Shown piece after piece: positions 5,635 to 23,389 of a stretch of 64,000 nucleotides of DNA. The stretch spans positions 96,001-160,000 of the forward strand of contig JBFXLE010000003.1 of assembly GCA_050173015.1 (NCBI GenBank), given 5' to 3'. A program made the position numbers and the translations under genes. Position 1 is the stretch's first letter. Each line of letters opens with the position of its first letter. The notes beneath the pieces are model-generated. The model searched no databases, was not told where the DNA came from, and saw only the letters and a list, made by a program, of their open reading frames with translations. The stretch is from Calditrichaceae bacterium. Lineage in GTDB: Bacteria; Calditrichota; Calditrichia; Calditrichales; JBFXGD01.

Positions 5635-8600
5635 CTAACTGACGACATCTGTTTGTACTACCTTATTCTTTTTCCCAAACCCTTTCAGGAAATCCGCGAT
5701 ACTTTCAAATGAATCATATACCACAGGTATCACAATCATTGTAAGGAATGTTGATGCCGTCATTCCACCGATTACCGCGATCGCCAGGGGAGAAAACTTT
5801 TCCGCGCCAAGCGCCAGTTCCAGAGCCAGCGGTGTCATACCGATAATTGTTGAAAACGACGTCATCATGATCGGCCTGAATCGGGCCGCGACGGATTCAA
5901 CAATCGCTTCCCTTCTTTCGGCTCCCTCCTCACGGCGTTGCCTGATAAAGTCGAGCAGAATTATGGAATTGTTCACAACGATGCCCACAAGGAGAATCAT
6001 CGCCACCATCACAATCATCGACACTGTCTTGCCTCCAATCCAGAGAGCAATGGCCACTCCGATCAGACTCAATGGAACCGACATCATCACTGTCACCGGA
6101 TGAATGAATGAGCGAAACTGAGCGACAAGAAGCAGGTAAATGGCGATTAACGCCATCATCATTGCCCCCGTGAGCTCACTTTTCGCTTCACCTAAATCCT
6201 TGTCTTCGCCTGAAAGTCCCACCTTGTAACCCTTCGGGACATTGATTTTTGAAATTTCTTTGGCCACGTCAGCGGTCACAAAATTCAATGCGCGATTCTG
6301 GTGCAGAGCGAGAATATCGAGTGTCGGCTCCAGGTTTTCGGTGGTTACCAATCCCTGCACCATAATTTCTTTACCGTTTACGATACTGCCAATCGGTACT
6401 ACCTGTCCATCCGTGGAGGAGATCGTACGGACCTCATAGGCGTCTTTTTCTCGCTGACGAAATGGTATATCGTATCTGACGCGAATGGGTGTATCATCTC
6501 CCTGCATATCCCGGAACGTTCCTGCAGACATCCCATCGAGAGAACGAACCAATTCATTGGCCGCGCTGACCGGAGTCATCCCCATCTCACGGGCGCGTTC
6601 AGTATCGATTGAAAGTTCGATACTTTTCTGGTCGATACGCCACTCACGATATGGATTTACCACCCCAGGTATCGGTCTGATGATTCTCATGACTTCATCA
6701 CCTAAAGCATTGAGGACTAAAGGATCTTCTCCTTTTACACTGACCATAATAGATGCAGCCGTTGTGGATTTAGCCGTCGCTCCTGATTCCCTTACAACAA
6801 CATTCTGAAGCCCCGGAATCTTCCATATTTTCTCCCTGAGACGGTCCTGGATTTCCCAAATGGATTCCGAGCGTTGCGTACGTGGCGTTAAGGTTAATTG
6901 GATATATCCCTGCGTTGGGCCCTGTACACCACCGCCGCCAAAAGAATGCATACCCGGTTCGAAGCCCATTTGATTCGATATCAGAATCACTTCGGGTTCA
7001 TCGAGAATGATCGCTTCCACCTGCTCCATTATTTTTCCGGTTTCTGTAAGCGATGTACCCGAGGTCGTTTCTATGGTAATATTGGTCGTGCCGGCATCCA
7101 TTTTCGGCAGTAACTCCATACCAAGATATTTTAACATTATGAGTGAACCTACAAACAAGACAGTCATAGTTAAAAACACTAACCACCTTTTGTTCAGTGA
7201 TTTGGAGAGCAATGTGGTATAAAAATCACGTACTTTATCCATCACACGATTCCAGGGCGCCGAAATTTTTTCCGAATATTTTTCAACTTTACCACCGTCT
7301 CTGGTCACCAATGCCGTAAGAATAGGTACCAGAGACAGTGCGACGAGCAATGAAGAAATAAAAGCAATGATCATCGTAGCCGCCAATGGACCGAATGTTT
7401 TTCCTATGAAACCATACAAAAAGAGGAGCGGGAAAAGAACGATTAATGTCGTTAAATTTCCTGCGACGACAGCAAACTGAATTTCCTTTGCCCCCTCGGC
7501 AGCCGCCTGGGTCGCTGATATTTTTCTTTCCCGGTAATGTCTTGTAATATTTTCCAAAACAACTACGGAGGCATCCACCACCATACCAACCGCCAGAATG
7601 ATCGCTGAGAGTGTAACAAGATCCAATTGTACGTTGAATACTTTCATTCCCGCGAATGTAAGCAGAAAGGTCATCGGCATGGAAACGGCAACAACAAGAC
7701 CTCTGCTCAAGCTTCCAAGAAAAAGAAATATGATGATGGCGGCGAGAAAAATAGCCTGCCAGACACCACTCAGCATATTATCTACAATCAACTGAGTAAA
7801 CGAAGCATCTTCCTTTGCAACAATCATTTCAATTTCGGGATAACGCTCATTTAACTCTTCAAACTTTTTTTGAGCACGCACAACAACATCAACGGTATTG
7901 GCATCATCCTGTTTAAAAACCTGCATGGCAATCGCTTCTTTGCCATTTACTCTGAACAGTGAGAGATTTTCGCCTGATCCCTGCTCTACCTTCGCGATAT
8001 CACCGATCAATATCCGCTTACCGGTTGGCGTCGTTATGGGAATTTTTTCAATTTCAGTCATATTCTGACTTTGTTCATCCACACGGAAAGTATACTGCAA
8101 TCCTTCACTCTTGATCTGACCGGCAGGTACACTCACATTATGACTGCGAATCGCGTTAACCACCATGCCAAGATTCAGCCTGTGAGCTTCAAGACGGTCT
8201 CTGTTAATTCTGATTGATATTTCGGGCTCATAACCCCCAAACACATCCACAACGGAAACCCCGCGCACTCTTTGAAGTTCAGGAGCCAGTACGTCTTCAG
8301 CCAGTCTGCGAACATCTACCAGATTTTCACTTATCAAACCCATACTCAGAACCGGAGCATCACTGGTTGAAATTTTCAAAATCTGGGGTTCATCGATCTC
8401 TTTTGGCAGTTTTCCCCGGATTCTGGTGATGGCGTTCTGAACATCTACCGCCGCGATATCGACATCCGTGTCGTAGGTAAACTCCACTTCCACCAGGGAT
8501 AAACCATCCTGTGATGTAGAAGTCACCTTATATACCCCCTCCAGGGTCGCGGCTTCTGTTTCGATTGGATCGGATACCAAATCCGCCACATCCTCCGCCG

Positions 8601-8763
8601 CGGCACCTGCATAAGGTGTCAGAACATTGACCAGCGGCGGTGAAGTATCCGGAAACAACTGAATTGGCAGAGTGTAATACGCAACCGTACCAAATATCAG
8701 CGCAGCAATTGAAAGCGCGTAAATTGTATATTTATTTTTTAACGAAAATTCTGGAAGGCTCAT
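5635..8763 (-). CDS. RND efflux transporter inner-membrane subunit (AcrB/CusA superfamily)
   Basis: 1042 aa; LPIQLFPD, GMVVDASVVVLENI, ARFRPIMMTS, PLAIAVIGG motifs; two large periplasmic loops. Confidence 0.95.
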   Translation of the reverse strand: MSLPEFSLKNKYTIYALSIAALIFGTVAYYTLPIQLFPDTSPPLVNVLTPYAGAAAEDVADLVSDPIETEAATLEGVYKVTSTSQDGLSLVEVEFTYDTDVDIAAVDVQNAITRIRGKLPKEIDEPQILKISTSDAPVLSMGLISENLVDVRRLAEDVLAPELQRVRGVSVVDVFGGYEPEISIRINRDRLEAHRLNLGMVVNAIRSHNVSVPAGQIKSEGLQYTFRVDEQSQNMTEIEKIPITTPTGKRILIGDIAKVEQGSGENLSLFRVNGKEAIAMQVFKQDDANTVDVVVRAQKKFEELNERYPEIEMIVAKEDASFTQLIVDNMLSGVWQAIFLAAIIIFLFLGSLSRGLVVAVSMPMTFLLTFAGMKVFNVQLDLVTLSAIILAVGMVVDASVVVLENITRHYRERKISATQAAAEGAKEIQFAVVAGNLTTLIVLFPLLFLYGFIGKTFGPLAATMIIAFISSLLVALSLVPILTALVTRDGGKVEKYSEKISAPWNRVMDKVRDFYTTLLSKSLNKRWLVFLTMTVLFVGSLIMLKYLGMELLPKMDAGTTNITIETTSGTSLTETGKIMEQVEAIILDEPEVILISNQMGFEPGMHSFGGGGVQGPTQGYIQLTLTPRTQRSESIWEIQDRLREKIWKIPGLQNVVVRESGATAKSTTAASIMVSVKGEDPLVLNALGDEVMRIIRPIPGVVNPYREWRIDQKSIELSIDTERAREMGMTPVSAANELVRSLDGMSAGTFRDMQGDDTPIRVRYDIPFRQREKDAYEVRTISSTDGQVVPIGSIVNGKEIMVQGLVTTENLEPTLDILALHQNRALNFVTADVAKEISKINVPKGYKVGLSGEDKDLGEAKSELTGAMMMALIAIYLLLVAQFRSFIHPVTVMMSVPLSLIGVAIALWIGGKTVSMIVMVAMILLVGIVVNNSIILLDFIRQRREEGAERREAIVESVAARFRPIMMTSFSTIIGMTPLALELALGAEKFSPLAIAVIGGMTASTFLTMIVIPVVYDSFESIADFLKGFGKKNKVVQTDVVS

Positions 8764-9818
8764 CTTTGCACCTCCTCTAATTCTACAGCAAAGACATTGA
8801 CACTGTCTTTTAAGGAGCCAAGATTAGTAATAGCAACAGTCTCACCATTTAATTTATCCAGCGAAACAGAAATCCATCCATTCTGCTCAATCCCCAGCTT
8901 TACATCCCTGCGAAACGCTTTACCATCATTGATGAGAAACAGATGCGGATTTTTATCACGATTCGCGATCGCCTGGACAGGGACAACTACAGCATCTTTA
9001 TGGGAATCTAGAATATAATCCACCCTGAGCGACGCGCCTTTGCGTAAAATTTGACCATCATTTGTACGTATCGGTGTTTTCACAATAAATGCTCTTGACA
9101 TGCCGCTGGCCACCGGTGAAACTTCTGAAACTTTTGTTTCATATTTTTTACCGCTGTTTTCAGTGACCAGTGCTGTGATTCCTTTACGAATTCCTCTGTG
9201 AAGATCTTCTTCTACCACCTCGGCATGCAGCTCAAGCTTATTGTTCCCTAAGAGTAATATCGGCTGACCCGGCATCACATTTTGTCCCGGTTCAACAAGC
9301 CAGTCCAAGACTTCACCGTTAATGGGAGATCTTTCGATTGTTTTTTCAAGACGTGATTTTGCTTCGGTATAGGCCGCATTGGCCGCAAGATAAGCTCTCT
9401 TACTGGCTTCCCCCTCTTCCTGAGGTATGGCTTTTGCTTCCACCAGCCTCTTATCCGCCTCATATCTTCTCGACCAGTAATCAAAATCAGCTTTTGTCCG
9501 TTCAACCACGGCTTCCAGATCGGGAGCATATATTTTCGCGATCAAGTCACCTTTTCGAATTTGCGCTCCTTCGGGATACTGCAGGGAACCAATGGTCCCC
9601 TGAACCTGAGCAGTCACTTTAACTTCGCTTTCTGAATGAACCGTACCCATATAAGAAAGGACTTTATCCATGTCTTTATGCATGGGCTTAATTACTCTGA
9701 CGGCGACAGGAGGATGGGTGACTTCAGAATTTTCCTTGCTGCAGCCGCTTAATAAAACAGTTATAATTAATAATATTGTCATCGTTAATTTAATTCGCCA
9801 GTTCATCAAGATTTTCAT
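8760..9818 (-). CDS. RND efflux periplasmic adaptor (MFP), lipoprotein
   Basis: Lipobox LLSGC, lipoyl-like halves (AQVQGTIGSLQYPEGAQIRKGDLI; RSPINGEV...VEPGQNVMPGQPI); overlaps RND start. Confidence 0.92.
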   Translation of the reverse strand: MKILMNWRIKLTMTILLIITVLLSGCSKENSEVTHPPVAVRVIKPMHKDMDKVLSYMGTVHSESEVKVTAQVQGTIGSLQYPEGAQIRKGDLIAKIYAPDLEAVVERTKADFDYWSRRYEADKRLVEAKAIPQEEGEASKRAYLAANAAYTEAKSRLEKTIERSPINGEVLDWLVEPGQNVMPGQPILLLGNNKLELHAEVVEEDLHRGIRKGITALVTENSGKKYETKVSEVSPVASGMSRAFIVKTPIRTNDGQILRKGASLRVDYILDSHKDAVVVPVQAIANRDKNPHLFLINDGKAFRRDVKLGIEQNGWISVSLDKLNGETVAITNLGSLKDSVNVFAVELEEVQR

Positions 9819-11179
9819 GACTCACTCCCTAATAACATTTTTACATTTTCCACATTTAATGTCCCAGCGGTAGAATGATAATCCAGGATGGCCATCAATT
9901 CCGCGTATATCAATTCTTTTTCCTGCATTTGTAAATCCAATAATTCTGTTTCCTGTGTCAGCAGTTCGCTGAGCGAGATCCTGCCGGTTTCATAAATTTT
10001 TCTTTGAGCAGTAACGGATGTCAGCTTATGCTCAACCGCTTTTGTTAAATATTGTCTTCTTACTTTCGCGCTTTTCCAACGGTCATAGGCAATTTTTAAC
10101 AATGCGGTTTGGGTCTGTTGAGCCGCTTTCAAATTTTCTTTTGCCGAAACCGTATATGCTTTTGCCGATTTTACCTTTGCAATTCTGCTGCCGCCCTCAA
10201 AAAGAGGCACACTCAGCGTGACACCGGCTACCCATTCGTCCGAAATATCAATTTCCGAGGGCGAAAAGTAGTTATACGCCGCAAACCCGCCTATCTCCGG
10301 AAGAAAACTTCTTTTGGAGAGTGAAAGCATGGCCTCAGATTTACCCAACTGAGCATGCGCGCGACGTACTTCAGGACCGGCATAATCGGAATAAATTAAA
10401 CTGGTATCCGGTAAGAGCGATGCCAAAGCATCATTTTCCGATGAATGGCTTTTCATATCCGTGAGAAAAGGCTGAACCGGATCATGTCCGCCAACAAGCT
10501 GGCCCAGATTGACATTCAGTTCGTATCCCTTCGACTCGATTTCAAGGCTATCAGCCTGAACAGATTCCAGGGAAGCCTGTAACAGAGCGATATCAGAATA
10601 TGAAACCCTGCCCTCGTCAAGAAGCAGCTTAAATTCATTGTATCTTTGTCTCAATATCCCCAGATGAGCGCCAACCAGATCTTCTTTGTCATTTAATTCC
10701 TGGGCGCTGATATATACACTGGCAACACTGTGAATGATGTTCAGTCTAACCGACTCTTCATTGATATCCCGTTCCCGGGCTCCTGCCCTGGCGGCATTTG
10801 TTTCGGCTAATGTTCTTCCTCCGCTGAATAAGGACATGGACAATTCAACAGATGCTTTATATATTTCATCATCCAGTTCCGGAAATCGGCCGGCCTCATG
10901 AATCGGTGTAACGGTGCTCGGTTTTTCATAGTGGGTATATCCCGCGTTCGCCCTCAGTTTCGGCAAAAATCCGCTTTTCGCGTCCCAAACATCCGCGCGC
11001 GCCGCCCTGCTCATCCCTTTCGCAGAGCCATAATAAGGATTCTGTTCCAGCGCCTGATCCAGCGCTGTGGATAGATTCATTCCATTCGGGGTGTCGGATG
11101 CGCTCAGCGCACCGGTAGAAGCAAAAATAATTGCAGCTCCCGCAATCACTGTTCTAATCGTTCGATTCTTCCGTACCAT
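9815..11179 (-). CDS. TolC family outer-membrane efflux protein
   Basis: Signal peptide, LSTALDQALEQNP, duplicated OEP repeats (FLPKL..., FLPEI..., LSVPLFEGG). Confidence 0.9.
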   Translation of the reverse strand: MVRKNRTIRTVIAGAAIIFASTGALSASDTPNGMNLSTALDQALEQNPYYGSAKGMSRAARADVWDAKSGFLPKLRANAGYTHYEKPSTVTPIHEAGRFPELDDEIYKASVELSMSLFSGGRTLAETNAARAGARERDINEESVRLNIIHSVASVYISAQELNDKEDLVGAHLGILRQRYNEFKLLLDEGRVSYSDIALLQASLESVQADSLEIESKGYELNVNLGQLVGGHDPVQPFLTDMKSHSSENDALASLLPDTSLIYSDYAGPEVRRAHAQLGKSEAMLSLSKRSFLPEIGGFAAYNYFSPSEIDISDEWVAGVTLSVPLFEGGSRIAKVKSAKAYTVSAKENLKAAQQTQTALLKIAYDRWKSAKVRRQYLTKAVEHKLTSVTAQRKIYETGRISLSELLTQETELLDLQMQEKELIYAELMAILDYHSTAGTLNVENVKMLLGSES

Positions 11180-11747: not shown

Positions 11748-12926
11748 ATGAGCGAGAACAGCCCGGAAACACATTATTCTCATCTTTTTTTTAATAAAAA
11801 TCTCCAGGTCATTTATTCAGTTACCCTGATCGCCGTGATGGGTGTCGCCAGCATCACTCCGGCCTTTCCCAGGATAATCGGGTATTTTAATATCTCTTCC
11901 CACCAGATCGGATTACTAATAACCGTTTTTACCTTCCCCGGAATTATTCTTGCCCCTGTTTTTGGTATTTTAGCGGACCGGCTGGGCAGAAAAAAAATAC
12001 TCATCCCGTCTCTTTTTTTGTTTGGGATCTCCGGATTTAGCTGCGCTTTTATCAGTGATTTTAATTTGCTCCTTCTAATGAGAACAATTCAGGGAATGGG
12101 AGCCGCGTCTCTTGGCGCACTCAATGTTACACTTATTGGTGATTTATTTACGGGAAAAGACCGGTCTGCGGCGATGGGCTATAACGCCAGTGTTCTTAGC
12201 ATCGGTACAGCGTCATATCCGGCAATCGGAGGAGCGTTGGCCCTGTTTGGATGGAATTATCCTTTCATCCTTCCGGTTCTCGCGATTCCCGTTGGACTGC
12301 TTGTGATATTTGGTCTAAATAATCCCGAACCAAAACGATCCCAATCGTTTAATGATTATTTGTCCAGTATTCTTAAGAGCGTAAGAAAGAAGCAGGTCCT
12401 GATCTTGTTTATACTTAGTATTATCACATTTATTCTGATTTATGGATCGTACCTGACCTATTATCCGCTTCTGATATCTTTTAAATTTAAAGCATCTTCT
12501 CTTGTTATCGGAATTATTATGTCCGTAATGTCTGTCAGTACAGCCCTTACATCGTCTCAACTCGGTAAACTCACAAAAAAATATTCTGAAAAACATCTTA
12601 TAAAAGTGGCTTTCATCCTGTATACTCTGGCACTTTTTTCTATCCCGTATCTATCGAATATATATCTGTTATTAATACCTACTATCATATTTGGCATCGC
12701 GCAGGGTTTAAATCTGCCCGGCATTCAGACATTACTTGCCGGTCTGGCCCCTATTGAGCACCGCGCCGCGTTTATGTCCATTAACGGCATGGTCCTTCGC
12801 CTCGGTCAGACAATCGGTCCTCTTTTGATCGGCGTTTTTTTTAGCATTTGGGGTATCGATGCAGCCTATTTTAGCGGAGCGGGACTGGCATTTATCACCT
12901 TTATTTTGACAATATTTCTGCTATAA
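11748..12926 (+). CDS. MFS transporter (DHA1-like)
   Basis: About 12 hydrophobic segments; motif A FGILADRLGRKKIL; RTIQGMG. Confidence 0.92.
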   Translation: MSENSPETHYSHLFFNKNLQVIYSVTLIAVMGVASITPAFPRIIGYFNISSHQIGLLITVFTFPGIILAPVFGILADRLGRKKILIPSLFLFGISGFSCAFISDFNLLLLMRTIQGMGAASLGALNVTLIGDLFTGKDRSAAMGYNASVLSIGTASYPAIGGALALFGWNYPFILPVLAIPVGLLVIFGLNNPEPKRSQSFNDYLSSILKSVRKKQVLILFILSIITFILIYGSYLTYYPLLISFKFKASSLVIGIIMSVMSVSTALTSSQLGKLTKKYSEKHLIKVAFILYTLALFSIPYLSNIYLLLIPTIIFGIAQGLNLPGIQTLLAGLAPIEHRAAFMSINGMVLRLGQTIGPLLIGVFFSIWGIDAAYFSGAGLAFITFILTIFLL

Positions 12927-13331
12927 TTGGTTTCTTCAACTAAATTCAAGATGATAATATCATACACATATCTACTTAACGATTCCCCAAAAAATAATTT
13001 TTCGAAAACCGGCTTTTTTTTATAAAAACCTGATGATTTGTCAAAAATATACTTAAATTGTGTATCGAATCCCGGAAATTGAAAACGAGTAAATATTCCA
13101 GGTTAAAATATAGTTTGAAGGTATGTTCAAATAGAGCATCATTCAATAAGTAAGGGAATGCCCGGGGAATTTGAAAAGAATCGGACATCCGGATACGCTC
13201 AACAACCGTTAAGCGCATTTTTCCGATCGACATAACGACATGTTCATCATAAATTTATTACCGGACAGAGCACAATTTTACCGGAATAGCAAAATCAGAT
13301 TTTTTGACAAGTATCTTCCCGGAGGTCTTTA

Positions 13332-16300
13332 ATGGCGACTGCAAGAAAATTCGGCACTTTTGGAGGTGTTTTTACACCTTCTATCCTGACTATTCTCGGT
13401 GTGATCATGTACCTTCGCCTCCCCTGGATACTTGGACAGGCAGGACTTTATACAACTCTCGGAATCATTCTGATTGCTCATCTTATCTCGGTAACAACAG
13501 GCTTAAGCATTTCTTCAATTGCCACTGATAAAAAGGTAAAGGCAGGAGGAAATTACTATCTCTTGTCGCGCAGTCTTGGGCTGCCGATCGGAGGAACGCT
13601 TGGTATCGCCCTGTTTGTCGGACTTTCATTGAGCGTTAGTTTATACATTATCGGATTCTCAGAAAGTTTTCTTGGTTTTATAGGTATCGAAGTTACAAAG
13701 AATACAATAAGAATAGCCGGCACCATCGCGCTTGTCAGCATTACAGTGATTACCTTAATAAGCACCTCCCTGGCAATCAAAACACAGTATATCATCATGA
13801 CCGCGATGGTGCTTTCGCTTATATCGATATTTTTTGGCGGCACTTCTTCGGAGCCGGCTCAACCTGTTCTTAAATCACTCGAAACCAGCGCCCCTCTAAT
13901 GGTACTTTTCGGCATCTTCTTTCCTGCCGTAACCGGATTTGAAGCGGGTGTTTCAATGTCAGGTGATCTGAAAGATCCTAAAAAATCAATACCGGGCGGA
14001 ACAATCACAGCCGTAGTAACAGGTCTTACTGTTTACATAATTTTGACCATCTTTCTTGCCTACCGCGTAGATGCTGAATCACTTGTGAATAATCCCAATA
14101 TCCTTCTTGACATATCATTCTTCTCCCCTCTCGTGCTTGCGGGTATCTGGGGAGCGACTATTTCATCGGCCCTCGGAAGCATCCTTGGCGCGCCCCGCAT
14201 TCTTCAGGCGACATCGGTTGACAGAATCACGCCAAAGTTTTTCGAGAAGGGCTATGGGAAGGAAAACGAACCGCGAAACGCGCTCTTACTCACATTTATT
14301 TTAGCTGAAGCGGGCATCCTTTTGGGTGAACTGAATCTAATAGCAAGAATTGTTTCCATGTTTTTCATCACCACCTATGGCTTTTTAAACTTGAGCTGCG
14401 CGATTGAAAACTGGGCCAGTAGTGACTTTCGGCCTTCATTTAAAGTACCTACCTGGATAAGTGTGATCGGTTCAGTTGCCGCTTTTTTTGTAATGATAGA
14501 GCTGGATGTAATGGCTCTTGTCGTCGCATCGCTTATCCTGGGTATAATATTTATAGCGCTAAAAAGGAGAGAACTTACTCTTGAATCCGGTGATACCTGG
14601 GAGGGAGTCTGGTCATCAATGGTTCGAACCGGTCTTCAAAAACTCAACCGCTCCGACCGTCACGCGAGAAACTGGCGCCCGAATATCATTTTATTCAGTG
14701 GCGGTACCGGCACTCGTCCGCATCTGGTGGAATTTGGACAATGGCTGGTTCATAAACGCGGGATTCTCTCAAATTTTGATCTTGTCGAGAACCCCGGGGC
14801 AAAAGCGTTATTCCCGGAAATGGGACATGATATAAAAGACAGCGAGGGAGAATTCTCCGGAGTTTTCAAAAGACGTATCGAATGTCAAAATATTTACGAA
14901 GGTATAGAAACCATTTCAAAAATTTACGGATTTTCCGGCATTGATCCAAATTCTATCATGATGGGCTGGGCCCGGAATTCAAAAAGCCCGGGTAAATTTG
15001 CTGAATTGATAAACGAATTCAACACGCTTGATTATAATGTACTCATTCTTGATTATGATAAGGAAATCGGCTTCGGGAAAAAACAAAACATCGATATCTG
15101 GTGGCGTGGAGGAAGCAATAACGCCGCGCTTGCTATGACGATGGCAAAATTCCTGCTTTCAGCGGAAGAATGGCATGACGCGCGTGTCAGAATTTTAATT
15201 GTAGTCAATGACAGCGCTCTGATTAACAAAGTATATAAAAACATGAATTTAATTTTAGAAGAACAGCGTTTGGACGCCAGGGTAAAAGTCATAAATAACG
15301 CTATCGAAAAACGAAAGTTTGAAGAAATTATCAAGGTGGAATCAGTCGATGCTGATTTATCGATTCTTGGAATCCCCGGTTTAGATGACAAAAATATTGA
15401 AGATTTTGTTACGGTTACCAATTCACTTTTGGATACTGTTGGAACAGTGCTCCTTATTCAGGCGGCCTCATTTTTTAAACCACTGTTCATCGGTATCGAA
15501 AAGACAGGTCCCGAGACTCAGAATCTTGAACTCTCTGTAGGAGAGAAATATAATTTACCCGATCTTAACCTCCCGGAAAGCGGAATTCTTTCGAAAACAG
15601 TGTCCGGTTTATCAGATCAGATCGAAAAAGAAATCCATGAATTTTTCAGCGCTTTTTTTAAAGATTTTTCGGATTCCGAGATCGGGTTCCTTACCAAACT
15701 TAATAATTTTATTGAACGGTATTTTGACAGTCTGGAAAATGCATTTACCGACAATAAACCCCTTCGTTTTCAAAAACTATTAATGCGGGTTCAAAGCGAT
15801 TATTTATTTCATTCCCGGCGCCTTCTGGATGAATTCAAATCAGAAATTCCGACGGAGCAAAAAGAGAATATTGAACAGGGACTTGATCTTTTTCTCAAAC
15901 AATTAGACACGTTGGCTGAAAACGTTTCATCAAGAGTTGGTGTTACTTTTGAGCCGTTTGAACTAAACGCTTCCGCGGATGATTCATTTCAAATCCGGAT
16001 GATGAAAATGAAAAAACGAATCATCTACCGTTTATCAAAAAAACCAATTGTCTTAAACATTGATTTAAAATTACTTGTAGAATATCATATTTTAACTGTT
16101 TTCCTAAAAAAATTATATTCTCAGCTTGATAAGACGGGAATTGAAAGATACCGCCGCATATCTGATTTACAAAAACTTTTCAACCGGATCAGGGATTCTA
16201 TAAACACGATGGAGGAAATGGCAAACAACAGGCAATTGGATGTGAATTTTATAAAAGACGAAAAGGCAAAAATATTAAAACAAGTAAAGAATTTAATAGC

Positions 16301-18473
16301 TCGGTCAGAGCAGCAATTCAGTGATTTCAGAATGGAGCTGCTGCTTCAAAATCGTGTTATCATGCAGAATATTATTTCCAGTTCAATTACAATAGACGCG
16401 GGCCGGCGTCTTAAAAAAAGATTTAAAATATCAAAATCCGATCTAAAAATAAAAGAACAAATTCTTGAGGTTCCGGCATCTTTATCAAAAAATACGGAAT
16501 TGGTGGTAAACTTTGCGTTGATGGATTTGATTTTGATGGCTTTACAGTACAGATTCAGGATAATCGTTACAAAACAGATTACTGAAATTCGGGCATCTGT
16601 GGAAAACAGACTTATAAGTAGTCTGTCAGAGCTCGAATCGGATATTAAAAACATCAAAAGCAATAAGGAACCAGAAACCGGATCTTTGATATCATGGTCA
16701 CTCGATCCGGAAGAAATTATTGATAACAGATCTGTTATTGATGAATTGGTTTCAGATATCAGAAGCGCGATCGATGAAATCCCTGAGACCGTAGATATCA
16801 TCGCCGAAAACTCCTTTCAGAATATCGAAATCAATCAATTCGATGAAACCGAAGTGGTTTCGATTTACCTGCAGCGTCTTATGGATTACCTGGTTGAGAA
16901 AGATTTTCTAACGCCGTTTAGAAAAGAGATATCATCACTTCCGATCGAATTCAGGCAGGCTGTTGGCACCGCCAGGGATGTCGTCCGTCTCATTTCTTTT
17001 AATATCTCATCATCCGGTACATCAGAGGAAACCGGAATTGATGATCTGCATGACCCCATTGAAACGATCATTGAAAAAAGTATTCAAAGAATAATCAGCG
17101 AGAGAGAGAAAATATCAAAAGATATTCAAAAAATGGAAGATTCATTATGGGGGCATTTAAACAAAACCTTTTCATCCATGAATCCTTATCTCGTCACACG
17201 TGAGATCGGGCATCTGGGTCAGTATATCAGACAGGAAGAAAGCCGGAAAGTCTTGTCCCAGGTTCAGGCCGTGAGGGAAACTGTAAAGAAGACTTTCAGA
17301 GACACTCTGATCCGGATGCTTTACAGTCAAAGCGAAGGGGTTCTGTTCGCGCGGAAGTTTACGGAGAAAGAATTCGCATATCCCGGGAGCATCAGCACAG
17401 TGATAAATATTGTTGAAAAAGTATCACCGCCCCCCGCAGTCATCAAATCGCTTCCTTTTTACTATAAACAATTATTTGTCGGCAAACATTTTATCGGACG
17501 TGAGTTCAGAATAAACCGCCACACGGAGATGAAAACCGCGGAGAAGGCGGTGAGCAGATATAAACAGGGGTTCAGCGGAGGCATTCTCATAACAGGAGAG
17601 CCGGACGCCGGAAAGTCGAGTCTGTCTAACGCAATCGCCACAAAATTTTTCGCTCACGAGAAAGTATTCCACATCTTTCCGCCGGAAACAGGCAGCATCG
17701 CTCCGGATGTCTTCACCACTCACCTGAACAGAATTTTACAAACTCAAGGCGAACCGGCTGAAATTTTTGATACCATGCCCGCGGGCAATGTATTTATTTT
17801 TAATGATCTCGAATTATGGTGGGAACGCAGTAGCAACGGATTTGTATTGGTTGATCAGATCATGAATCTGATTGATAAATTCGGCAGGAGACACTTATTT
17901 ATAGTGAATACAAATACTTACAGTCTTCGTTTTATTAACAAAATAAAACAGATTGATAATCATTTTATCAGCATTATCGAATGCACTCCTTTTGACACGG
18001 AGGATATTAAAGAAGCACTTCTCATGCGTCACCGGTCAACGGGATTCAAATTTCAACTAAACAACCACTTTGAAGACAATATTTCTGAATTCAAACTGGT
18101 GCGTTATTTTAACAAATTATTCGATTATTCCAATGGCAATATAGGCACCGCGCTACAGGGCTGGTTCAGTCATATCGACAGCGTTGCCGGTAATATACTT
18201 ACCCTTCGCGATCCGGAGCGTCCGGATTCAGACGCATTTAACAAACTTGATCCGGAATGGCTGGTATGGCTTATTCAATTTATTATTCATAAACGGCTGA
18301 CCATTGAGAAGCTGGTAAGAATTTTTAACACCGATCCGGAAAAAGTCCGGACTAAAATCGAACTTTTTAAACGTTCAGGTTTAGTTACGGAGATTCAGAC
18401 GAATCAGCTCGAGCTCAATCAGTATCTCCAACCGTTTATAATTCGACAATTTATAGAAATGGAGATTTTATGA
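13332..18473 (+). CDS. Cation-chloride cotransporter (SLC12/CCC, APC superfamily) fused to helical region and C-terminal P-loop NTPase/wHTH domain
   Basis: CCC motifs KFGTFGGVFTPSILTILGVIMYLR, AGGNYYLLSRSLG, FGIFFPAVTGFEAGVSMSGDLKDPKKSIP, GAPRILQA, RNWRPNI (~aa 446), IDIWWRG (~aa 587). Walker A GEPDAGKS at aa 1422-1429 (nt 17595-17618); Walker B-like VFIFNDLE. Confidence 0.88.
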   Translation: MATARKFGTFGGVFTPSILTILGVIMYLRLPWILGQAGLYTTLGIILIAHLISVTTGLSISSIATDKKVKAGGNYYLLSRSLGLPIGGTLGIALFVGLSLSVSLYIIGFSESFLGFIGIEVTKNTIRIAGTIALVSITVITLISTSLAIKTQYIIMTAMVLSLISIFFGGTSSEPAQPVLKSLETSAPLMVLFGIFFPAVTGFEAGVSMSGDLKDPKKSIPGGTITAVVTGLTVYIILTIFLAYRVDAESLVNNPNILLDISFFSPLVLAGIWGATISSALGSILGAPRILQATSVDRITPKFFEKGYGKENEPRNALLLTFILAEAGILLGELNLIARIVSMFFITTYGFLNLSCAIENWASSDFRPSFKVPTWISVIGSVAAFFVMIELDVMALVVASLILGIIFIALKRRELTLESGDTWEGVWSSMVRTGLQKLNRSDRHARNWRPNIILFSGGTGTRPHLVEFGQWLVHKRGILSNFDLVENPGAKALFPEMGHDIKDSEGEFSGVFKRRIECQNIYEGIETISKIYGFSGIDPNSIMMGWARNSKSPGKFAELINEFNTLDYNVLILDYDKEIGFGKKQNIDIWWRGGSNNAALAMTMAKFLLSAEEWHDARVRILIVVNDSALINKVYKNMNLILEEQRLDARVKVINNAIEKRKFEEIIKVESVDADLSILGIPGLDDKNIEDFVTVTNSLLDTVGTVLLIQAASFFKPLFIGIEKTGPETQNLELSVGEKYNLPDLNLPESGILSKTVSGLSDQIEKEIHEFFSAFFKDFSDSEIGFLTKLNNFIERYFDSLENAFTDNKPLRFQKLLMRVQSDYLFHSRRLLDEFKSEIPTEQKENIEQGLDLFLKQLDTLAENVSSRVGVTFEPFELNASADDSFQIRMMKMKKRIIYRLSKKPIVLNIDLKLLVEYHILTVFLKKLYSQLDKTGIERYRRISDLQKLFNRIRDSINTMEEMANNRQLDVNFIKDEKAKILKQVKNLIARSEQQFSDFRMELLLQNRVIMQNIISSSITIDAGRRLKKRFKISKSDLKIKEQILEVPASLSKNTELVVNFALMDLILMALQYRFRIIVTKQITEIRASVENRLISSLSELESDIKNIKSNKEPETGSLISWSLDPEEIIDNRSVIDELVSDIRSAIDEIPETVDIIAENSFQNIEINQFDETEVVSIYLQRLMDYLVEKDFLTPFRKEISSLPIEFRQAVGTARDVVRLISFNISSSGTSEETGIDDLHDPIETIIEKSIQRIISEREKISKDIQKMEDSLWGHLNKTFSSMNPYLVTREIGHLGQYIRQEESRKVLSQVQAVRETVKKTFRDTLIRMLYSQSEGVLFARKFTEKEFAYPGSISTVINIVEKVSPPPAVIKSLPFYYKQLFVGKHFIGREFRINRHTEMKTAEKAVSRYKQGFSGGILITGEPDAGKSSLSNAIATKFFAHEKVFHIFPPETGSIAPDVFTTHLNRILQTQGEPAEIFDTMPAGNVFIFNDLELWWERSSNGFVLVDQIMNLIDKFGRRHLFIVNTNTYSLRFINKIKQIDNHFISIIECTPFDTEDIKEALLMRHRSTGFKFQLNNHFEDNISEFKLVRYFNKLFDYSNGNIGTALQGWFSHIDSVAGNILTLRDPERPDSDAFNKLDPEWLVWLIQFIIHKRLTIEKLVRIFNTDPEKVRTKIELFKRSGLVTEIQTNQLELNQYLQPFIIRQFIEMEIL

Positions 18474-19228
18474 AACAGATATTTGAGCTACCGCTCTCTC
18501 AATTCGCCATCATAAAAGTTCTGATATTTGCTTTTGCTCTTTTTCTTATTATTAAACTGTTTGAGCGGATTGCAAAAGTTGTCTTTGTAAAGCGAATCTA
18601 CCGGTTATATTTTCAGCGGTACTACCCGATTCTGGAAACGGTTGTTTGGCTTCTTTTTGTCCTGTGGAGTATTGATCAGATTTTTAAGGACCGTTTATAT
18701 TACTCTGTTGCCCTTATTCTTATCATCCTGGTCACTCTTGTATGGATATCCTGGTTTGCGGTCCGGGATTTTATCGCGGGTATCATTTTTAAAGCGCAGG
18801 ATGTCTATGAAGCGGGACAATGGATTAAAATTTCTGAAATTGAGGGCCGTTTAAAAAGCATCGGATATCTATCACTGGAGATTGAAATCGAAAGCGGTGA
18901 AATTATAAAGTTTCCTTACAGTAAAATAACGGGTGTGATCCATTCAATAAGCGACCCTGAAGAACATTCCAATCATCACCGCTTCGAAATCGAACTAAAC
19001 CGGGCAAACAGCCTGAAAGAAAATGTTGAACTGCTTCGGCGGATCATATTAAATTCGCCCTGGACTTTATTGACAAAAGCTCCGCAAATACAGTTGCTCG
19101 AAGAAAACGAAAATCATTTTGTATTTGAAATATTTGTGTATTCTATCAGCAAGGAATTCTTCAGACACATTGAGAATGATGTAAAATCCTCGGCCGCGGA
19201 AGTCGGGTTGTCAGGGGTAAAAAATTGA
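18470..19228 (+). CDS. MscS-family mechanosensitive channel protein (small, divergent)
   Basis: Three TM segments followed by RDFIAGIIFK..YEAGQWIKISEIEGRLKSIGYLSLEIEIESGEIIKFPYSKI (MscS beta-domain); ATGA overlap with upstream gene. Confidence 0.75.
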   Translation: MKQIFELPLSQFAIIKVLIFAFALFLIIKLFERIAKVVFVKRIYRLYFQRYYPILETVVWLLFVLWSIDQIFKDRLYYSVALILIILVTLVWISWFAVRDFIAGIIFKAQDVYEAGQWIKISEIEGRLKSIGYLSLEIEIESGEIIKFPYSKITGVIHSISDPEEHSNHHRFEIELNRANSLKENVELLRRIILNSPWTLLTKAPQIQLLEENENHFVFEIFVYSISKEFFRHIENDVKSSAAEVGLSGVKN

Positions 19229-19278
19229 TTGCGGCCAGGTAAAATGTATGCCGGAAAAATTAAACACTCAGGAATAAA

Positions 19279-20217
19279 TTGAATTTTGTCAAGCACATTG
19301 AAAACAGCAATCAGATACAATACGACCTTTGCATTGCCTCTGACTGGACATATGACGAGGACTTCGTTTCCCTTTTGGAAACTTACGCCAGACAGAATAG
19401 CCTGTCTACCTATATTGTAAGACTTCATAATCTTGATGAAACAATTTCCCTGCTGAAGGGAAAGCGGTTGCATTTTCGGTATTTTTTTGACCGCGCTTCC
19501 GATACTTCTCCTGAATTTCTAAACTTACAGTACTTATTTTCAAAACAGGATTTACCCGTTTTTGAGACCAAGGCTCAGTTAGAATGGGCGTCAGATAAAT
19601 CGACAATGCATCTCGAGTTCATTTCAAATGGTCTAAATCTTCCCTACACTATTATACTGCCTTCATACAGAGAAACCGCGGACGTAAAATTGTCACTGAC
19701 TGATCTTACGAATCTCGGCAGACCGTTTATTATAAAACCGGCGAATACGACCGGCGGAGGTATCGGCGTGGTTAACGGAGCAGAGACTTTACAGGATGTC
19801 ATAGCGGCTCGACTGGAATTTGAATATGATAAATATCTTCTTCAGGAAAAAATTATCCCCGCGGATATTGACGGTAAAAGATTCTGGTTCAGAGGATTTT
19901 ATGCCTGCGGTGATATTTTCCTGTGTTGGTGGAATGATATTAGTCACCGTTATGAGATCATGAATCCGAATGATGAGGAAAAATATAATTTGCGAGCGAT
20001 GTATTCGATCATTGAAAAGATCGCGGAAATTTGTAAATTAAATCTGTTCTCAACCGAAATTGCCATGAATAATGAGGAAAAATTTATTATTGTGGATTAT
20101 GTGAATGAATCCTGCGATATGCGTCTTAAATCTAAACATTTTGACGGAGTACCTGATCTTATTGTTCATCAAATAGCAGAACGACTGACACAATTTATCG
20201 GAAATAAGCTGGCTTAG
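19279..20217 (+). CDS. Uncharacterised ATP-grasp fold protein
   Basis: ASDKSTMH, LPYTII, LGRPFIIKPANTTGGGIGV, YLLQEKI, FSTEIA..KFIIVDYVNE: ATP-grasp signature order. Confidence 0.75.
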   Translation: MNFVKHIENSNQIQYDLCIASDWTYDEDFVSLLETYARQNSLSTYIVRLHNLDETISLLKGKRLHFRYFFDRASDTSPEFLNLQYLFSKQDLPVFETKAQLEWASDKSTMHLEFISNGLNLPYTIILPSYRETADVKLSLTDLTNLGRPFIIKPANTTGGGIGVVNGAETLQDVIAARLEFEYDKYLLQEKIIPADIDGKRFWFRGFYACGDIFLCWWNDISHRYEIMNPNDEEKYNLRAMYSIIEKIAEICKLNLFSTEIAMNNEEKFIIVDYVNESCDMRLKSKHFDGVPDLIVHQIAERLTQFIGNKLA

Positions 20218-20220
20218 TAT

Positions 20221-21783
20221 ATGGAAAAAATCATTTCGGAAATTCAGGCAAACCGGAAGAATCTTGTCGATAGCGCGATTGAGACCGTTCTTACCTCCGG
20301 ATGGAGTTCGGATATAAAAATAACCGCTCCAGAACTTGAAAAAATATTTGATAATCTTTTTGCAAGTCTTGAAAAAGATCTGGCGGCAAAAACTGAAAAC
20401 GATTTCGGCAAATATCTGTATTCAAATTATCTCCGGTCGGTAAAGAGTCTTTCTGTCTTGAAGAACAATTTTCATACGCAGTTAACGATTCTTGGCATGG
20501 CAAGAACTGTAATTAATCATTTTCTTTCTAACCTCACCTCTGTCGGAATGGAAGAAATCAGACTTAAATTTAGTATGATTCAAAAAATATTTGACCATAC
20601 ACTGATCGAGCTTAGTCAGTGGTGGGGGCAAATTTATGAGGAATTCAGAATAAGTGACCAAAAACTGATACAAGAATTAAAAATTGTCAAAGACGGCCTT
20701 CAAAAACATCTGAATGTCATATATCAGATAATTAATGAATCACCCGTGGGGGTTGTCGATTGCGATTCAGAACTTATTGTTAAACACTGGAATCCGATGG
20801 CAGTCCGGCTTACGGGATTTCAGCCGAATGAAATACTTAAAAAAAGTGTTTTATATTTTATCGCGGATCAATCGCGTCAAAAATTTCTGGAAAAAATAAG
20901 AGGCGGCAGAAAATGGATTCCAAATTTGCGGCTGTTTATAAAAACGAAAAACGACTTACCTATCCCGGTAATATTCTCGATAAGTAAAATAAAAAATGTT
21001 AACGTGGCCAATATTGTATACATCATAAACTTCCAGAGTTCGGGAAATCAAGCGGGATTTAAGTCCAATGTACAGCAATTGAATCAATTAACAGCCATTG
21101 CGCGCCTGACCAGCGCGATCATGCACGACATCAGAAACCCGCTGAATTCCATCGGACTTAATCTGGATGTGCTTGAGCAGCAATTAGTTGAACAAAATGA
21201 AAACCTGCTTACAAAGGAACATAAAAATCTCATCGCAAGAATTCAGAATGAGATCGTTCAATTAAGCAGTAATCTTAATCATTATATTACCTATAGTCAT
21301 TTATCACAGCTTCAGCTCGAGCCTCTGGATATGAACCGGCAACTGAAAATTTTTACGGATGAATCGCGTTTTGAACTCAGCCATAAAAATATAAAATTTA
21401 TTTTACGAACCGGCAGAAGCGCTTGCCGTATAATGGGTGATTGGCTTCAGCTAAGAAGAGTATTCGCGAATATCGTTCAAAATTCCGCTGAGGCCATAAA
21501 TTCGGACGGGATCATAAAGATCGTCATGCAAAAAAGAGGTTCCCGTGTTATCATTTCCATAAAAGATAACGGAGAAGGTTTGGACCCACACAAAAAAACA
21601 CAAATTTTCGAACCCTTTTTTTCCACAAAAAAATCAGGTACAGGTTTAGGTCTGTTTATTTCCCGGGAGATTGTGATGGCCCATCGCGGAAAGATTTCCT
21701 GTCGTTCAGGCAAGGACACAGGCACATTATTCACAATTAGTTTTCCGCTGGTAACCGATGAAGGAGACAAAAGAATTGCCTAA
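20221..21783 (+). CDS. Cytoplasmic PAS-domain sensor histidine kinase (NtrB-like)
   Basis: PAS (IINESPVGVVDCD..WNPMAVRLTGFQPNEIL), H-box IMHDIRNPLNSI, N-box QLRRVFANIVQNSAEA, DNGEG, IFEPFFSTK, GTGLGL; no TM segment. Confidence 0.92.
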   Translation: MEKIISEIQANRKNLVDSAIETVLTSGWSSDIKITAPELEKIFDNLFASLEKDLAAKTENDFGKYLYSNYLRSVKSLSVLKNNFHTQLTILGMARTVINHFLSNLTSVGMEEIRLKFSMIQKIFDHTLIELSQWWGQIYEEFRISDQKLIQELKIVKDGLQKHLNVIYQIINESPVGVVDCDSELIVKHWNPMAVRLTGFQPNEILKKSVLYFIADQSRQKFLEKIRGGRKWIPNLRLFIKTKNDLPIPVIFSISKIKNVNVANIVYIINFQSSGNQAGFKSNVQQLNQLTAIARLTSAIMHDIRNPLNSIGLNLDVLEQQLVEQNENLLTKEHKNLIARIQNEIVQLSSNLNHYITYSHLSQLQLEPLDMNRQLKIFTDESRFELSHKNIKFILRTGRSACRIMGDWLQLRRVFANIVQNSAEAINSDGIIKIVMQKRGSRVIISIKDNGEGLDPHKKTQIFEPFFSTKKSGTGLGLFISREIVMAHRGKISCRSGKDTGTLFTISFPLVTDEGDKRIA

Positions 21784-23128
21784 TTTGAAAGTGCTGATCG
21801 TCGATGATGAAGAAAATACTCTTCAGGCCCTGAAAATGGGTCTTAATGTGAATGGATACGAAATACTGACCGAGGTATCGCGCAATGACGCGATCAATTT
21901 GCTAAAAAAGGAAGACATTGATATTGTCATCACCGATCTTAAACTGAAAGACGGATCGGGGCTTGATATCCTCAGTTATATTCAGGAGAATAACAACCGG
22001 ATTCCTGTTATTATCATTACCGCTCACGGCTCAGTCGAATCAGCGATAGAAGCTATTCGCAGCGGCGCTTATGATTATCTTGTAAAACCATTTCGTCTGG
22101 CCGATCTAAAAAAATTATTGACCAGACTCAGCGAGACAATACTTTTACGCCGCGAAAACGAGCAGCTTAAAAGCCAGCTCCGGCCTGAGACAGGGATGAT
22201 TCAATTAATCGGCGTGAATCAGCGTTTTAAGAGAATTATTGAATTTATCCGACAAATCGCCTCATCAAGAAGCACAGTCTTAATCACCGGCGAGACAGGC
22301 ACCGGGAAAGAAGTTGCTGCTAACGCTATTCATTTTTACAGTCAGCGTTCAGCAAAATCCTTTGTTAAAATCAACTGCGGGGCCATCCCGGAAACATTGT
22401 TGGAAGCCGAATTATTTGGATATGAACGCGGCGCTTTTACCGGGGCAGTTAAACAAAAAAAGGGTAAAATCGAGTTGGCGAACGACGGAACGCTTTTTTT
22501 AGACGAAATAGGTGAACTCTCCCCCTCCATGCAGGTGAAATTGCTCCGTGTTTTACAAAATGGAGAGTTTGAACGTCTGGGGGATACGGTCACACAGAAG
22601 GTGGACGTTCGTTTTATCGCGGCCACTAACGTGAGTTTGAAGGAACGCGTCTCCCTTGGAACATTCAGGGAAGATCTGTACTACCGTCTAAACGTCATGA
22701 CAATTCAAATGCCTTCACTCAGGGAAAGACTGGATGACATCCCCTATCTCGTTCAATATTTTATTGAAAAATATAATAACATTAATTCTAAAAGCGTACA
22801 GGGAGTGACCCCCGAAGTTATTAAACAAATGATGCGCTACCCCTGGCGCGGCAACATTCGTGAACTGGAGAATATGATTGAAAGAGCTGTTGTGCTTTGT
22901 CAGAATGACTTTCTAAAAGCAGAACATTTTCCAATGCTGCTGGAAGATATTGATGATGCTCAGCGCATGATAAAATTTGAAGTTGGCCATACGCTTTCTG
23001 AGATAGAAAAATCAGTTATTCAACGCACACTGCTATACTACCAGTATGATAAACAAAAAACAGCAATGACGTTGCAGATAAGTTTGGCGACCCTTTACAG
23101 AAAAATAAAAGAGTACGGATTGGAATAG
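21758..23128 (+). CDS. sigma54-dependent response regulator (REC-AAA+-Fis HTH, NtrC/AtoC family)
   Basis: VLIVDDE, ITDLKL, GETGTGKE, INCGAIP, GAFTGA, TLFLDEIGE, FREDLYYRL, WRGNIRELEN, ATLYRKIKEY. Confidence 0.96.
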   Translation: MKETKELPNLKVLIVDDEENTLQALKMGLNVNGYEILTEVSRNDAINLLKKEDIDIVITDLKLKDGSGLDILSYIQENNNRIPVIIITAHGSVESAIEAIRSGAYDYLVKPFRLADLKKLLTRLSETILLRRENEQLKSQLRPETGMIQLIGVNQRFKRIIEFIRQIASSRSTVLITGETGTGKEVAANAIHFYSQRSAKSFVKINCGAIPETLLEAELFGYERGAFTGAVKQKKGKIELANDGTLFLDEIGELSPSMQVKLLRVLQNGEFERLGDTVTQKVDVRFIAATNVSLKERVSLGTFREDLYYRLNVMTIQMPSLRERLDDIPYLVQYFIEKYNNINSKSVQGVTPEVIKQMMRYPWRGNIRELENMIERAVVLCQNDFLKAEHFPMLLEDIDDAQRMIKFEVGHTLSEIEKSVIQRTLLYYQYDKQKTAMTLQISLATLYRKIKEYGLE

Positions 23129-23141
23129 ATACATCTTTTCA

Positions 23142-23237
23142 TTATCATTTTGATATTTATTACCCCCTCATTTGAACAATATTCTCAAAATGAGAACCAA
23201 TATCACCATCATAAATCCTATTTTATCATTTTGAGAA
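23142..23237. promoter_or_regulatory. Three palindromic enhancer (UAS) sites TT(A/C)TCA-n3-TGA(G/T)A
   Basis: TATCA-TTT-TGATA (23143-23155), TTCTCA-AAA-TGAGAA (23182-23196), TTATCA-TTT-TGAGAA (23223-23237); centres 40 and 41 bp apart. Confidence 0.7.
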
Positions 23238-23281
23238 TATACGTATTCATCCCTCACCGGTCCTCACTTTTATACAGCTAA

Positions 23282-23294
23282 TAAATGCTTGATA
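23282..23294 (-). promoter_or_regulatory. Putative IHF binding site
   Basis: Minus strand TATCAAGCATTTA matches WATCAAnnnnTTR and lies between the UAS sites and the sigma54 core. Confidence 0.55.
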
Positions 23295-23323
23295 TTATTG
23301 TGTTTACTTGCTGTAAATAATCA

Positions 23324-23340: not shown

Positions 23341-23389
23341 ATTTACACACAAAACATGTTAACCGTTGATTATCCGAGAGGTAAGGATC

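Follow-up and report, generated by a model that had tools for sequence, protein, structure and literature searches.

Why would the gene for a bacterial cation-chloride cotransporter (CCC, the SLC12 family) run on for about 1,000 codons past the point at which its relatives end? The question is raised by an open reading frame (ORF) of 1713 aa in a 64,000-nt stretch of the genome of a Calditrichaceae bacterium (assembly GCA_050173015.1, contig JBFXLE010000003.1, positions 96,001 to 160,000 of the forward strand; hereafter the window, whose own numbering we use). An initial annotation, made from the sequence alone, had read this frame as a complete CCC continuing through a long helical region into a P-loop NTPase and a winged helix-turn-helix (wHTH)-like end, and had linked it to the translationally coupled MscS protein encoded next to it. 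We found that the ORF is a single real protein made of a CCC, two four-helix bundles and an AAA+-lid-winged-helix tail, and that these known domains are combined in a widespread but so far undescribed way, with a channel partner that is conserved. The coordinates of all features are collected in Table 1.

The ATG start of the fusion has a GGAGG 9 nt to its 5' side, and its stop codon overlaps the ATG of the next gene in the sequence TTATGA (nt 18470-18473). An assembly error or a frameshift could in principle have joined two genes, and two observations point that way. Nine of 70 loci with a complete 5' end carry shorter ORFs, six of them with a separate CCC ORF on the same strand just upstream, which could be split genes or frameshifts; and in one contig of low depth (run X5, depth 5.7) a single extra nucleotide (T) after 17133 would shift the frame. 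This insertion is not shown by runs X2, X6 and X7 (depths 25.6, 2.92 and 4.1, the last two low) and could reflect either faulty assembly or a disrupted allele in the X5 population. On the other side, a homologue search with aa 760-1713 (E ≤ 0.001) returned 83 proteins, of which 75 are 1600-1760 aa long, and the precomputed Pfam assignments place the permease family in all 75 of these protein clusters; the other eight comprise four unfused proteins (949-1009 aa), two fusions to a Na+/H+ exchanger (PF00999) of 1508 aa and two shorter or partial proteins. Contigs from one genome per species contained at least 265 loci with a relative among 600 pattern matches, and among the best 80, which we analysed, a CCC fusion of at least 1600 aa is intact at 61 of the 70 5'-complete loci. 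In a run from another study, one contig of 261,666 nt spans positions 13300-19300 with nine substitutions and no gaps, and contigs from two further studies bridge the junction between the CCC and the helical region near nt 15490. Because homologues conserve the fusion and an independent contig covers the ORF without gaps, the fusion is not an artefact; that explanation, to which we attach a negligible probability, is refuted for the window, and the uninterrupted frame described in the initial annotation is conserved at full length in homologues rather than always split between two genes.

The part of the protein that no CCC would be expected to carry includes the C-terminal tail. An AlphaFold2 model of the tail (aa 1330-1713, from 79 aligned sequences; predicted local distance difference test (pLDDT) 93.1, predicted template modelling score (pTM) 0.88) shows three domains in order: P-loop alpha/beta core, helical lid and winged helix. 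In a Foldseek search of the Protein Data Bank (PDB) its top match was A. pernix ORC2 (1w5t, E 1.9e-9), with further matches to RuvB, ORC/Cdc6 subunits, SSO1545 (2fna), PAB2304 (2qen), clamp-loader subunits and the NACHT domain of NLRP3 (7alv, E 2.6e-7); at least 500 entries matched at E ≤ 0.001, those listed being AAA+/STAND NTPases. Structure comparison with VIA gave Z 15.1 for NSF-D2 (212 aa, root-mean-square deviation 3.6), covering core and lid only, and spanned all three domains with ORC2 1w5t (Z 14.5, 281 aa, root-mean-square deviation 8.2, model residues 44-383), Cdc6/Orc1 2qby (Z 14.3, 275 aa) and 2qen (Z 14.0, 277 aa); 274 aa were aligned with 2v1u. Sequence comparison gave fainter signals. 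The tail sequence found only three matches among PDB sequences, all at E ≥ 0.68, and the tail profile found weak ones to P-loop proteins and wHTH regulators (best E 7.6e-4, extending to about 0.05), those of the winged helix being to archaeal wHTH regulators (2d1h, E 0.0011; PH1932, 0.0047) and a MarR-type protein (0.044). Structure prediction over aa 720-1713 thus recovered a P-loop NTPase fold, and both the AAA+/STAND-like module and the wHTH-like segment proposed from the sequence are borne out by the model, with the Walker A motif GEPDAGKS at aa 1422-1429, where it had been placed, and the Walker B-like segment VFIFNDLELWWER at aa 1487-1499.

The tail shares its order of core, lid and C-terminal winged helix with ORC/Cdc6, SSO1545 and PAB2304. 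It falls outside ORC/Cdc6 at the level of sequence, is tethered to a membrane transporter, has Gly (36/40) where ORC/Cdc6 proteins have the sensor-2 Arg, and ends in a winged helix that is not basic and whose recognition helix is variable. A GR motif ahead of the core and a PF motif at the start of the lid are, we assume, similar to motifs of ORC and AAA_16 proteins. The tail resembles the STAND NTPases (NB-ARC, NACHT and MalT-type) in placing a helical domain and a winged helix, in that order, after the nucleotide-binding domain, and in its switch-like set of motifs. STAND proteins carry a sensor or repeat domain after the winged helix, whereas the fusion ends there, at aa 1713, and has a large helical region N-terminal to its nucleotide-binding domain instead. 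An invariant histidine of the winged helix, H1653, is presumably reminiscent of the histidine in the STAND MHD motif.

We counted motif residues in a 40-sequence alignment of the tail. Invariant positions are P1375, Y1378 and F1382 of the LPFYYxxLF motif ahead of the core, G1422, G1427, G1503 and G1602, the R1566-H1567 pair in the first helix of the lid, and H1653 in the first helix of the winged helix (all 40/40). In the Walker A motif both glycines are present in 40/40, the Lys in 36/40 and Ser or Thr in 40/40. The Walker B-like segment reads VFIF-N-D-L-E in the fusion, the D1492 position being Asp in 38/40 and E1494, two residues on, Glu in 38/40, and is followed by a near-invariant WWE(R/K). 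The sensor-1 strand, LFIVNTN in the fusion, closes on an N-x-N whose two residues are found in 33 and 34 of 40 sequences. A GNxG motif in the lid has Gly in 36/40, Ala in 3 and Thr in 1 at the position that we take to be equivalent to sensor 2, on the strength of the GDxR motif of ORC/Cdc6 proteins. In the stretch from the sensor-1 strand to the lid, where an arginine finger would be expected, this alignment has no conserved Arg. The module most likely still binds nucleotide, but because there is no sensor-2 Arg and no arginine finger, and the Walker B segment is non-canonical, the motifs suggest that it is built as a switch rather than as a ring motor. No tail segment varies more than the presumed recognition helix (entropy 2.72, compared with 2.08 overall), and the net charge of the winged helix has a median of 0 (range -7 to +5); judged by this variability and charge, the winged helix looks unlikely to be a DNA reader.

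What the tail acts on is suggested by the gene that follows it. Its product has three transmembrane (TM) helices, a beta-domain, and a C-terminal alpha/beta domain with an LNxPW motif, and it keeps the RDxxAGxxFK hinge. It matches the MscS beta-domain family PF00924 (E 1.2e-8, 35.4 bits against a cut-off of 20.2), and 49 of 56 partner proteins match that family at E ≤ 0.001 and no other. The partner in the window did not match PF21088 (MscS TM2/3) or PF21082 (MscS C-terminal) at E ≤ 0.01, whereas the canonical MscS genes of the same genome do, and the identity between the partner and a canonical MscS of that genome is 25% over 53 aa. The partner therefore shares with the MscS family (MscS, MscK and YbdG) the three TM helices, the hinge and the PF00924 beta-domain, and differs from canonical members in being very divergent, in having its own LNxPW motif and in always being paired with an AAA+ protein.

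This pairing is conserved. At 76 of the 80 loci the sequence extends at least 800 nt beyond the fusion gene, and 64 of these have an MscS-like gene as its immediate neighbour: phmmer found 58, and a hidden Markov model (HMM) of the partner found six more, whose ORF starts had been called too far upstream. The two genes overlap in an ATGA at 19 of the adjacent loci, and at two further loci of the 76 an MscS-like gene lies within 3.5 kb. In the loci that we fetched from the phylum, a partner of 240-253 aa stands directly downstream of 17 of 18 fused genes (the window's own included) and one of 315-380 aa directly downstream of 12 of 12 unfused genes, so the type of partner tracks the type of AAA+ protein. 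In two Bacteroidota genomes the unfused copy (999 and 1044 aa, respectively) likewise has an MscS-like gene after it (318 and 347 aa). A metagenome-assembled genome (MAG) of Myxococcota encodes two further architectures, each followed by an MscS-like gene (261 and 305 aa, respectively): a 2032-aa protein (L126, 1021-7119) in which about 640 unassigned N-terminal residues and a Na_H_Exchanger domain precede the helical and AAA+ module, and a 1764-aa tail protein (L125, 6729-12023) whose N-terminal ~700 residues match no Pfam family. The invariant core is thus the combination of two four-helix bundles and the AAA+-lid-winged-helix tail with an MscS-like channel, and the cation transporters are add-ons. 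Since the module is found on its own and on Na+/H+ exchangers as well, it is the MscS-like channel, and not the CCC, that is the conserved partner of the AAA+ protein.

The genome of the window also has a paralogous cassette on the minus strand of another contig (C28; L005 3046-9850), which encodes an unfused 1021-aa helical and AAA+-winged-helix protein. The next four genes encode an MscS-like protein of 319 aa, a canonical MscS of 297 aa, a DUF432 protein of 266 aa and a further MscS of 295 aa.

We then modelled the complex between aa 1040-1713 of the fusion (bundle 2 and tail; 74-row alignment) and the cytoplasmic part of the channel, aa 98-252 (56-row alignment). Three runs gave ipSAE values of 0.72, 0.73 and 0.76, and none of three controls scored above 0.00; at least 86% of contacts are shared between the runs, and the pLDDT of the partner is 70 or higher. 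Among 80 solved complexes 58 attain the ipSAE mark, as do 2 of 110 mismatched pairs, a calibration that is only rough here, where our own alignments were used. The model supports binding of the AAA+-winged-helix module to the cytoplasmic C-terminal domain of the channel. The link to the MscS protein that the initial annotation had raised as a possibility is thus strengthened from three sides: adjacency at 64/76 loci, the same pairing in the paralogues, and a complex model that passes its controls (0.73 against 0.00).

The N-terminal part of the fusion is a CCC. It matches the Pfam families AA_permease (PF00324; aa 13-410, E 7.5e-47, 160.5 bits against a cut-off of 24.6) and SLC12 (PF03522; aa 583-663, 31.7 bits against a cut-off of 27), and the NCBIfam K-Cl cotransporter model TIGR00930 over aa 261-668 (E 2.1e-117). 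Because its score with the latter, 393.6 bits, is far below the trusted cut-off of 953.4, by sequence it belongs to the wider SLC12 family as a distant relation and lies outside the TIGR00930 subfamily. The closest solved structures are human KCC1 (E 9.6e-78) and NKCC1 (about 1e-73), with alignments that end by aa 655, and together with the two Pfam matches they uphold the claim of a complete CCC up to about aa 720. Ser278 and Ser279 align without gaps with S613 and S614 of human NKCC1 in TM8, positions at which KCC1 has Gly-Ala, and Tyr75 aligns with the Tyr of the KCC1 motif GGSYF in TM3, part of the K+ site. According to PMC7889885, the Na+ site of NKCC1 is made up of S613 and S614, and transport falls to less than 10% when they are mutated. 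From these ion-site residues we infer that the CCC moiety is an NKCC-like Na+/K+/Cl- uptake system. Columns of the family alignment average about 0.8 identity in the transporter, 0.3 in the bundles and 0.5 in the tail.

The APC-fold membrane domain and the SLC12 cytosolic domain are common to the fusion and the SLC12 CCCs (NKCC1, NCC and KCC1-4; TC 2.A.30). Neither the eukaryotic CCCs nor the archaeal and bacterial CCCs of about 700-750 aa have the ~1000 additional C-terminal residues of the fusion, and animal CCCs are regulated through the phosphorylation of their terminal regions. To our knowledge bacterial CCCs have barely been characterised, and we know of no NTPase on any of them; the titles and abstract openings returned by our literature searches reported no P-loop domain in a CCC. 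A second CCC in the same genome is an ordinary one without a tail (736-aa frame, C4:89743-91119), and is 40% identical to aa 5-454 of the fusion.

Between transporter and tail, the model of the helical region (aa 720-1350; pLDDT 87.2, pTM 0.80) shows two bundles with helices of 50-76 residues and two small beta elements each. The bundles are homologous to each other (hhalign, 93.8% probability and E 1.7e-7 for 103 columns surrounding the beta cap). Foldseek found no match to the region in the PDB at E ≤ 0.001, and in a wide VIA comparison 40 chains reached Z ≥ 8, the best being a designed helical bundle at Z 11.9. Because that value lies under the chance level of about 13 for helical models, we claim no specific fold relative for the bundles. 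ClyA-type toxins (SmhA and MakB) appeared in weak rows with a probability of at most 0.18, and are not claimed as relatives.

The family is large. With the tail profile we found 4229 cluster representatives (50% identity) at E ≤ 0.001 among 1.84 billion, 3376 of them at ≤ 1e-10 and 1570 at ≤ 1e-30. The loci lie in MAGs labelled Calditrichota, Bacteroidota, Ignavibacteria/Chlorobiota, Latescibacterota, Marinimicrobia and Myxococcota/Deltaproteobacteria, and cultured carriers are Mangrovivirga halotolerans and Fulvivirga sp. M361. In the phylum of the window, 37 of 86 genomes have the tail, in two classes, fused (about 1700 aa) and unfused (about 1000-1050 aa), many genomes carrying the two together. 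No Pfam or NCBIfam model scores above its threshold over aa ~720-1713 of the fusion. Homologues are publicly named 'amino acid permease' or 'hypothetical protein', and the nearest clusters in a protein atlas, of about 930-1000 aa, 'hypothetical' or 'ATP-binding'. Annotation pipelines call the fusions 'amino acid permease' because the specific part of about 1000 residues has neither a name nor a Pfam model. No publication on a CCC-NTPase fusion or an AAA+/MscS pair came up among the titles and abstract openings that our literature searches covered.

How might such a protein work? The model that we favour, which we think has an even chance of being right, is a nucleotide switch that docks on the MscS-like channel and is tied by a rigid helical arm to the cotransporter, so that uptake and release are set reciprocally. 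The NKCC-like cotransporter, with its own cytosolic domain, would handle salt uptake, and the two homologous four-helix bundles would act as the rigid arm. The AAA+-winged-helix module would be a nucleotide-dependent switch and not a motor, and would dock on the cytoplasmic C-terminal domain of the channel through the loop after Walker B and WWER, the helix after sensor 1, the first helix of the winged helix and the C-terminal end. Uptake through the CCC and release of solutes through the MscS-like channel would then be adjusted in opposite directions as one unit of turgor and ion homeostasis. In this model we infer binding in the cell, ATP dependence, the signal sensed, the direction of regulation and the ions carried. 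The module may also gate the transporter or sense ions, as the initial annotation proposed. A functional analogy is offered by the RCK/KTN domains of Trk, Ktr and Kef systems, cytosolic nucleotide-binding modules on or with a transporter or channel for monovalent cations; they differ from the tail in having a Rossmann-type rather than an AAA+ fold, no helical arm and no MscS partner.

Several observations weigh against this model. The AAA-type Pfam families all match the tail below threshold (AAA, 16.1 bits against 21.2; AAA_16, 14.6 against 32.6; nSTAND3, 13.0 against 27.2, E 0.084). The Walker A Lys is replaced by Arg in 4/40 sequences, and the first acidic position of the non-canonical Walker B segment is Asp in 15, Asn in 14, His in 7, Glu in 3 and Cys in 1 of the 40; the module may bind nucleotide without hydrolysing it, or may not bind nucleotide. 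Eight of the 76 loci have no MscS-like gene downstream by phmmer or partner HMM, and two Fulvivirga loci (L068, a MAG, and L084, strain M361) have a gene of only ~100-111 aa there, weakly similar to the MscS-like partner (E 3.9e-7 and 3.2e-10), which may be a truncated copy of it. Averaged over its residues, the predicted interface shows no extra conservation relative to the remainder of the fusion or of the channel (entropies of 2.19 compared with 2.08, and 2.61 compared with 2.55), with 70% and 62% of random residue sets scoring as low as the interface or lower, and the channel was modelled as a monomer fragment; MscS channels are heptamers and CCCs are dimers. Loci from related genomes are also non-independent counts, and the 80-locus and phylum sets may share genomes.

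Much of the same evidence could be read as the work of a scaffold, in which the helical and AAA+ module merely assembles, anchors or clusters the MscS-like heptamer, perhaps beside the transporter, with no regulation and no nucleotide signal. A structural partner would fit the conserved adjacency and the predicted contact equally well, and the degenerate motifs (no sensor-2 Arg, a variable Walker B, Arg in 4/40) would fit a non-catalytic domain, as would the top VIA match of the tail, NSF-D2, a non-hydrolysing oligomerisation domain. We nevertheless consider a scaffold unlikely. G1422 and G1427 of Walker A are invariant, its Lys is kept in 36/40, and D1492 and E1494 in 38/40 each, and because these residues are so strongly conserved, nucleotide appears to matter; the repeated fusion to two different cation transporters suggests in addition that the coupling is functional. 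That last point bears as well on the idea that the CCC is an ordinary cotransporter and that the tail with its MscS-like protein is a separate unit on the same polypeptide. The occurrence of the tail and MscS pair without any transporter, and the ordinary unfused CCC in the same genome, speak for such independence, yet the 1600-1760-aa fusion has been kept across several phyla (75/83 homologues; 61/70 loci), and fusions that arose with two transporter families are hard to explain without selection for tethering. We rate it as improbable, a step below the scaffold.

Two further explanations would give the protein a different output. With its ORC/Cdc6-like layout, its terminal winged helix and its weak profile matches to wHTH proteins (2d1h, PH1932 and the MarR type), it might be a membrane-tethered transcription regulator whose wHTH domain binds DNA and reports ion flux or membrane tension. 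The recognition helix is the most variable segment, the median charge of the winged helix is 0, and the complex model uses the first winged-helix helix and the C-terminal end for contact with the MscS-like protein, all of which makes this role very unlikely in our view. Phage defence, with a STAND/AAA+ sensor triggering an ion leak through a membrane effector (the MscS-like channel or the transporter), seems slightly more remote still. An NTPase sensor with a membrane effector is a common layout of defence systems, the distribution is patchy (37/86 genomes of the phylum), and PADLOC gave a weak match to mad8 over the P-loop region (E 9.3e-5). PADLOC has otherwise no match for the fusion, the partner or the paralogue pair, however; the fused transporters are complete, strongly conserved, of housekeeping type and intact at their ion sites; and the protein ends after the winged helix, where a sensor-repeat region would stand. 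The switch that couples cotransporter and channel remains the model that we prefer.

The window also shows what surrounds the pair. Downstream on the same strand (19279-24490) are an ORF of 312 aa and genes for a PAS histidine kinase of 520 aa, a sigma-54-dependent response regulator of 456 aa and a D-Ala-D-Ala-ligase-like ATP-grasp protein of 374 aa. The 312-aa ORF has no Pfam match and was found beside the window copy only, in none of the other loci screened. Upstream, on the minus strand (5635-11179), three ORFs of 1042, 352 and 454 aa resemble, by eye, the pump, membrane-fusion and outer-membrane components of an RND efflux system. A scan for transcription signals gave 25 promoter-like sites (18.7 ± 4.3 expected) and 13 terminator-like sites (6.8 ± 2.8 expected), among which no individual site is usable as evidence.

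Table 1. Positions of the fusion gene, its domains and motifs, the predicted contacts and neighbouring genes in the window
Feature	Position (nt)	Residues (aa)	Strand	Basis or remark
MFS transporter	11748-12926		+	PF07690, E 4.9e-63
Fusion ORF, no internal stop	13332..18473	1713 aa	+	stop codon 18471-18473
CCC/SLC12 transmembrane (APC-fold) domain	13332..14651	1-~440	+	Pfam, KCC1/NKCC1 alignments
CCC cytosolic C-terminal domain	14652..15491	~441-720	+	SLC12, TIGR00930, KCC1 alignment
Four-helix bundle 1 with small beta-hairpin cap	15573..16400	748-1023	+	structure model
Four-helix bundle 2 with connecting helix	16434..17378	1035-1349	+	structure model
Family motif SPx7LPFYYxxLF ahead of ATPase core	17424..17477	1365-1382	+	alignment
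AAA+ alpha/beta core	17487..17984	~1386-1551	+	model, Foldseek, VIA, motifs
Walker A GEPDAGKS	17595-17618	1422-1429	+	
Walker B-like segment with WWER motif, VFIFNDLELWWER	17790-17828	1487-1499	+	
AAA+ helical lid	17985..18218	~1552-1629	+	model, alignment
C-terminal winged helix, in predicted MscS-like contact surface	18219..18470	~1630-1713	+	model
Small divergent MscS-type channel gene, translationally coupled	18470..19228	252 aa	+	PF00924, synteny
Predicted fusion contact, just after WWE		1499-1501		complex model
Predicted fusion contact, helix after sensor-1 strand		1530-1538		complex model
Predicted fusion contact, first winged-helix helix, QFxxH		1641-1652		complex model
Predicted fusion contact		1664-1666		complex model
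Predicted fusion contact, last three residues		1711-1713		complex model
Predicted channel contact, LNSPW motif		191-204 (channel)		complex model
Predicted channel contact		226-245 (channel)		complex model

CCCs are among the best-studied animal transporters, as targets of diuretics and for their part in neuronal chloride and cell-volume control, and MscS channels are textbook tension-gated valves that are thought to need the membrane alone. If the AAA+ partner binds as modelled, some MscS-type channels would be under nucleotide or protein control. The fusion and its partner are probably an undescribed bacterial means of controlling salt content and turgor, and an uptake transporter and a release valve in one unit would offer a compact, genetically tractable model for how turgor is set without futile salt cycling. 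Beyond the window, it is possible, though we would not yet lean towards it, that the helical and AAA+-winged-helix protein with its MscS-like neighbour is an unrecognised, widespread nucleotide-gated mechanosensitive-channel system that has repeatedly been welded to a CCC or a Na+/H+ exchanger to give a single-complex regulator of cell volume. Such a regulator would correspond in function to the WNK-SPAK/NKCC-KCC circuit of animals, with an AAA+ switch in place of the kinases, in a large family that reaches across several phyla and whose specific part of about 1000 residues is still unnamed.

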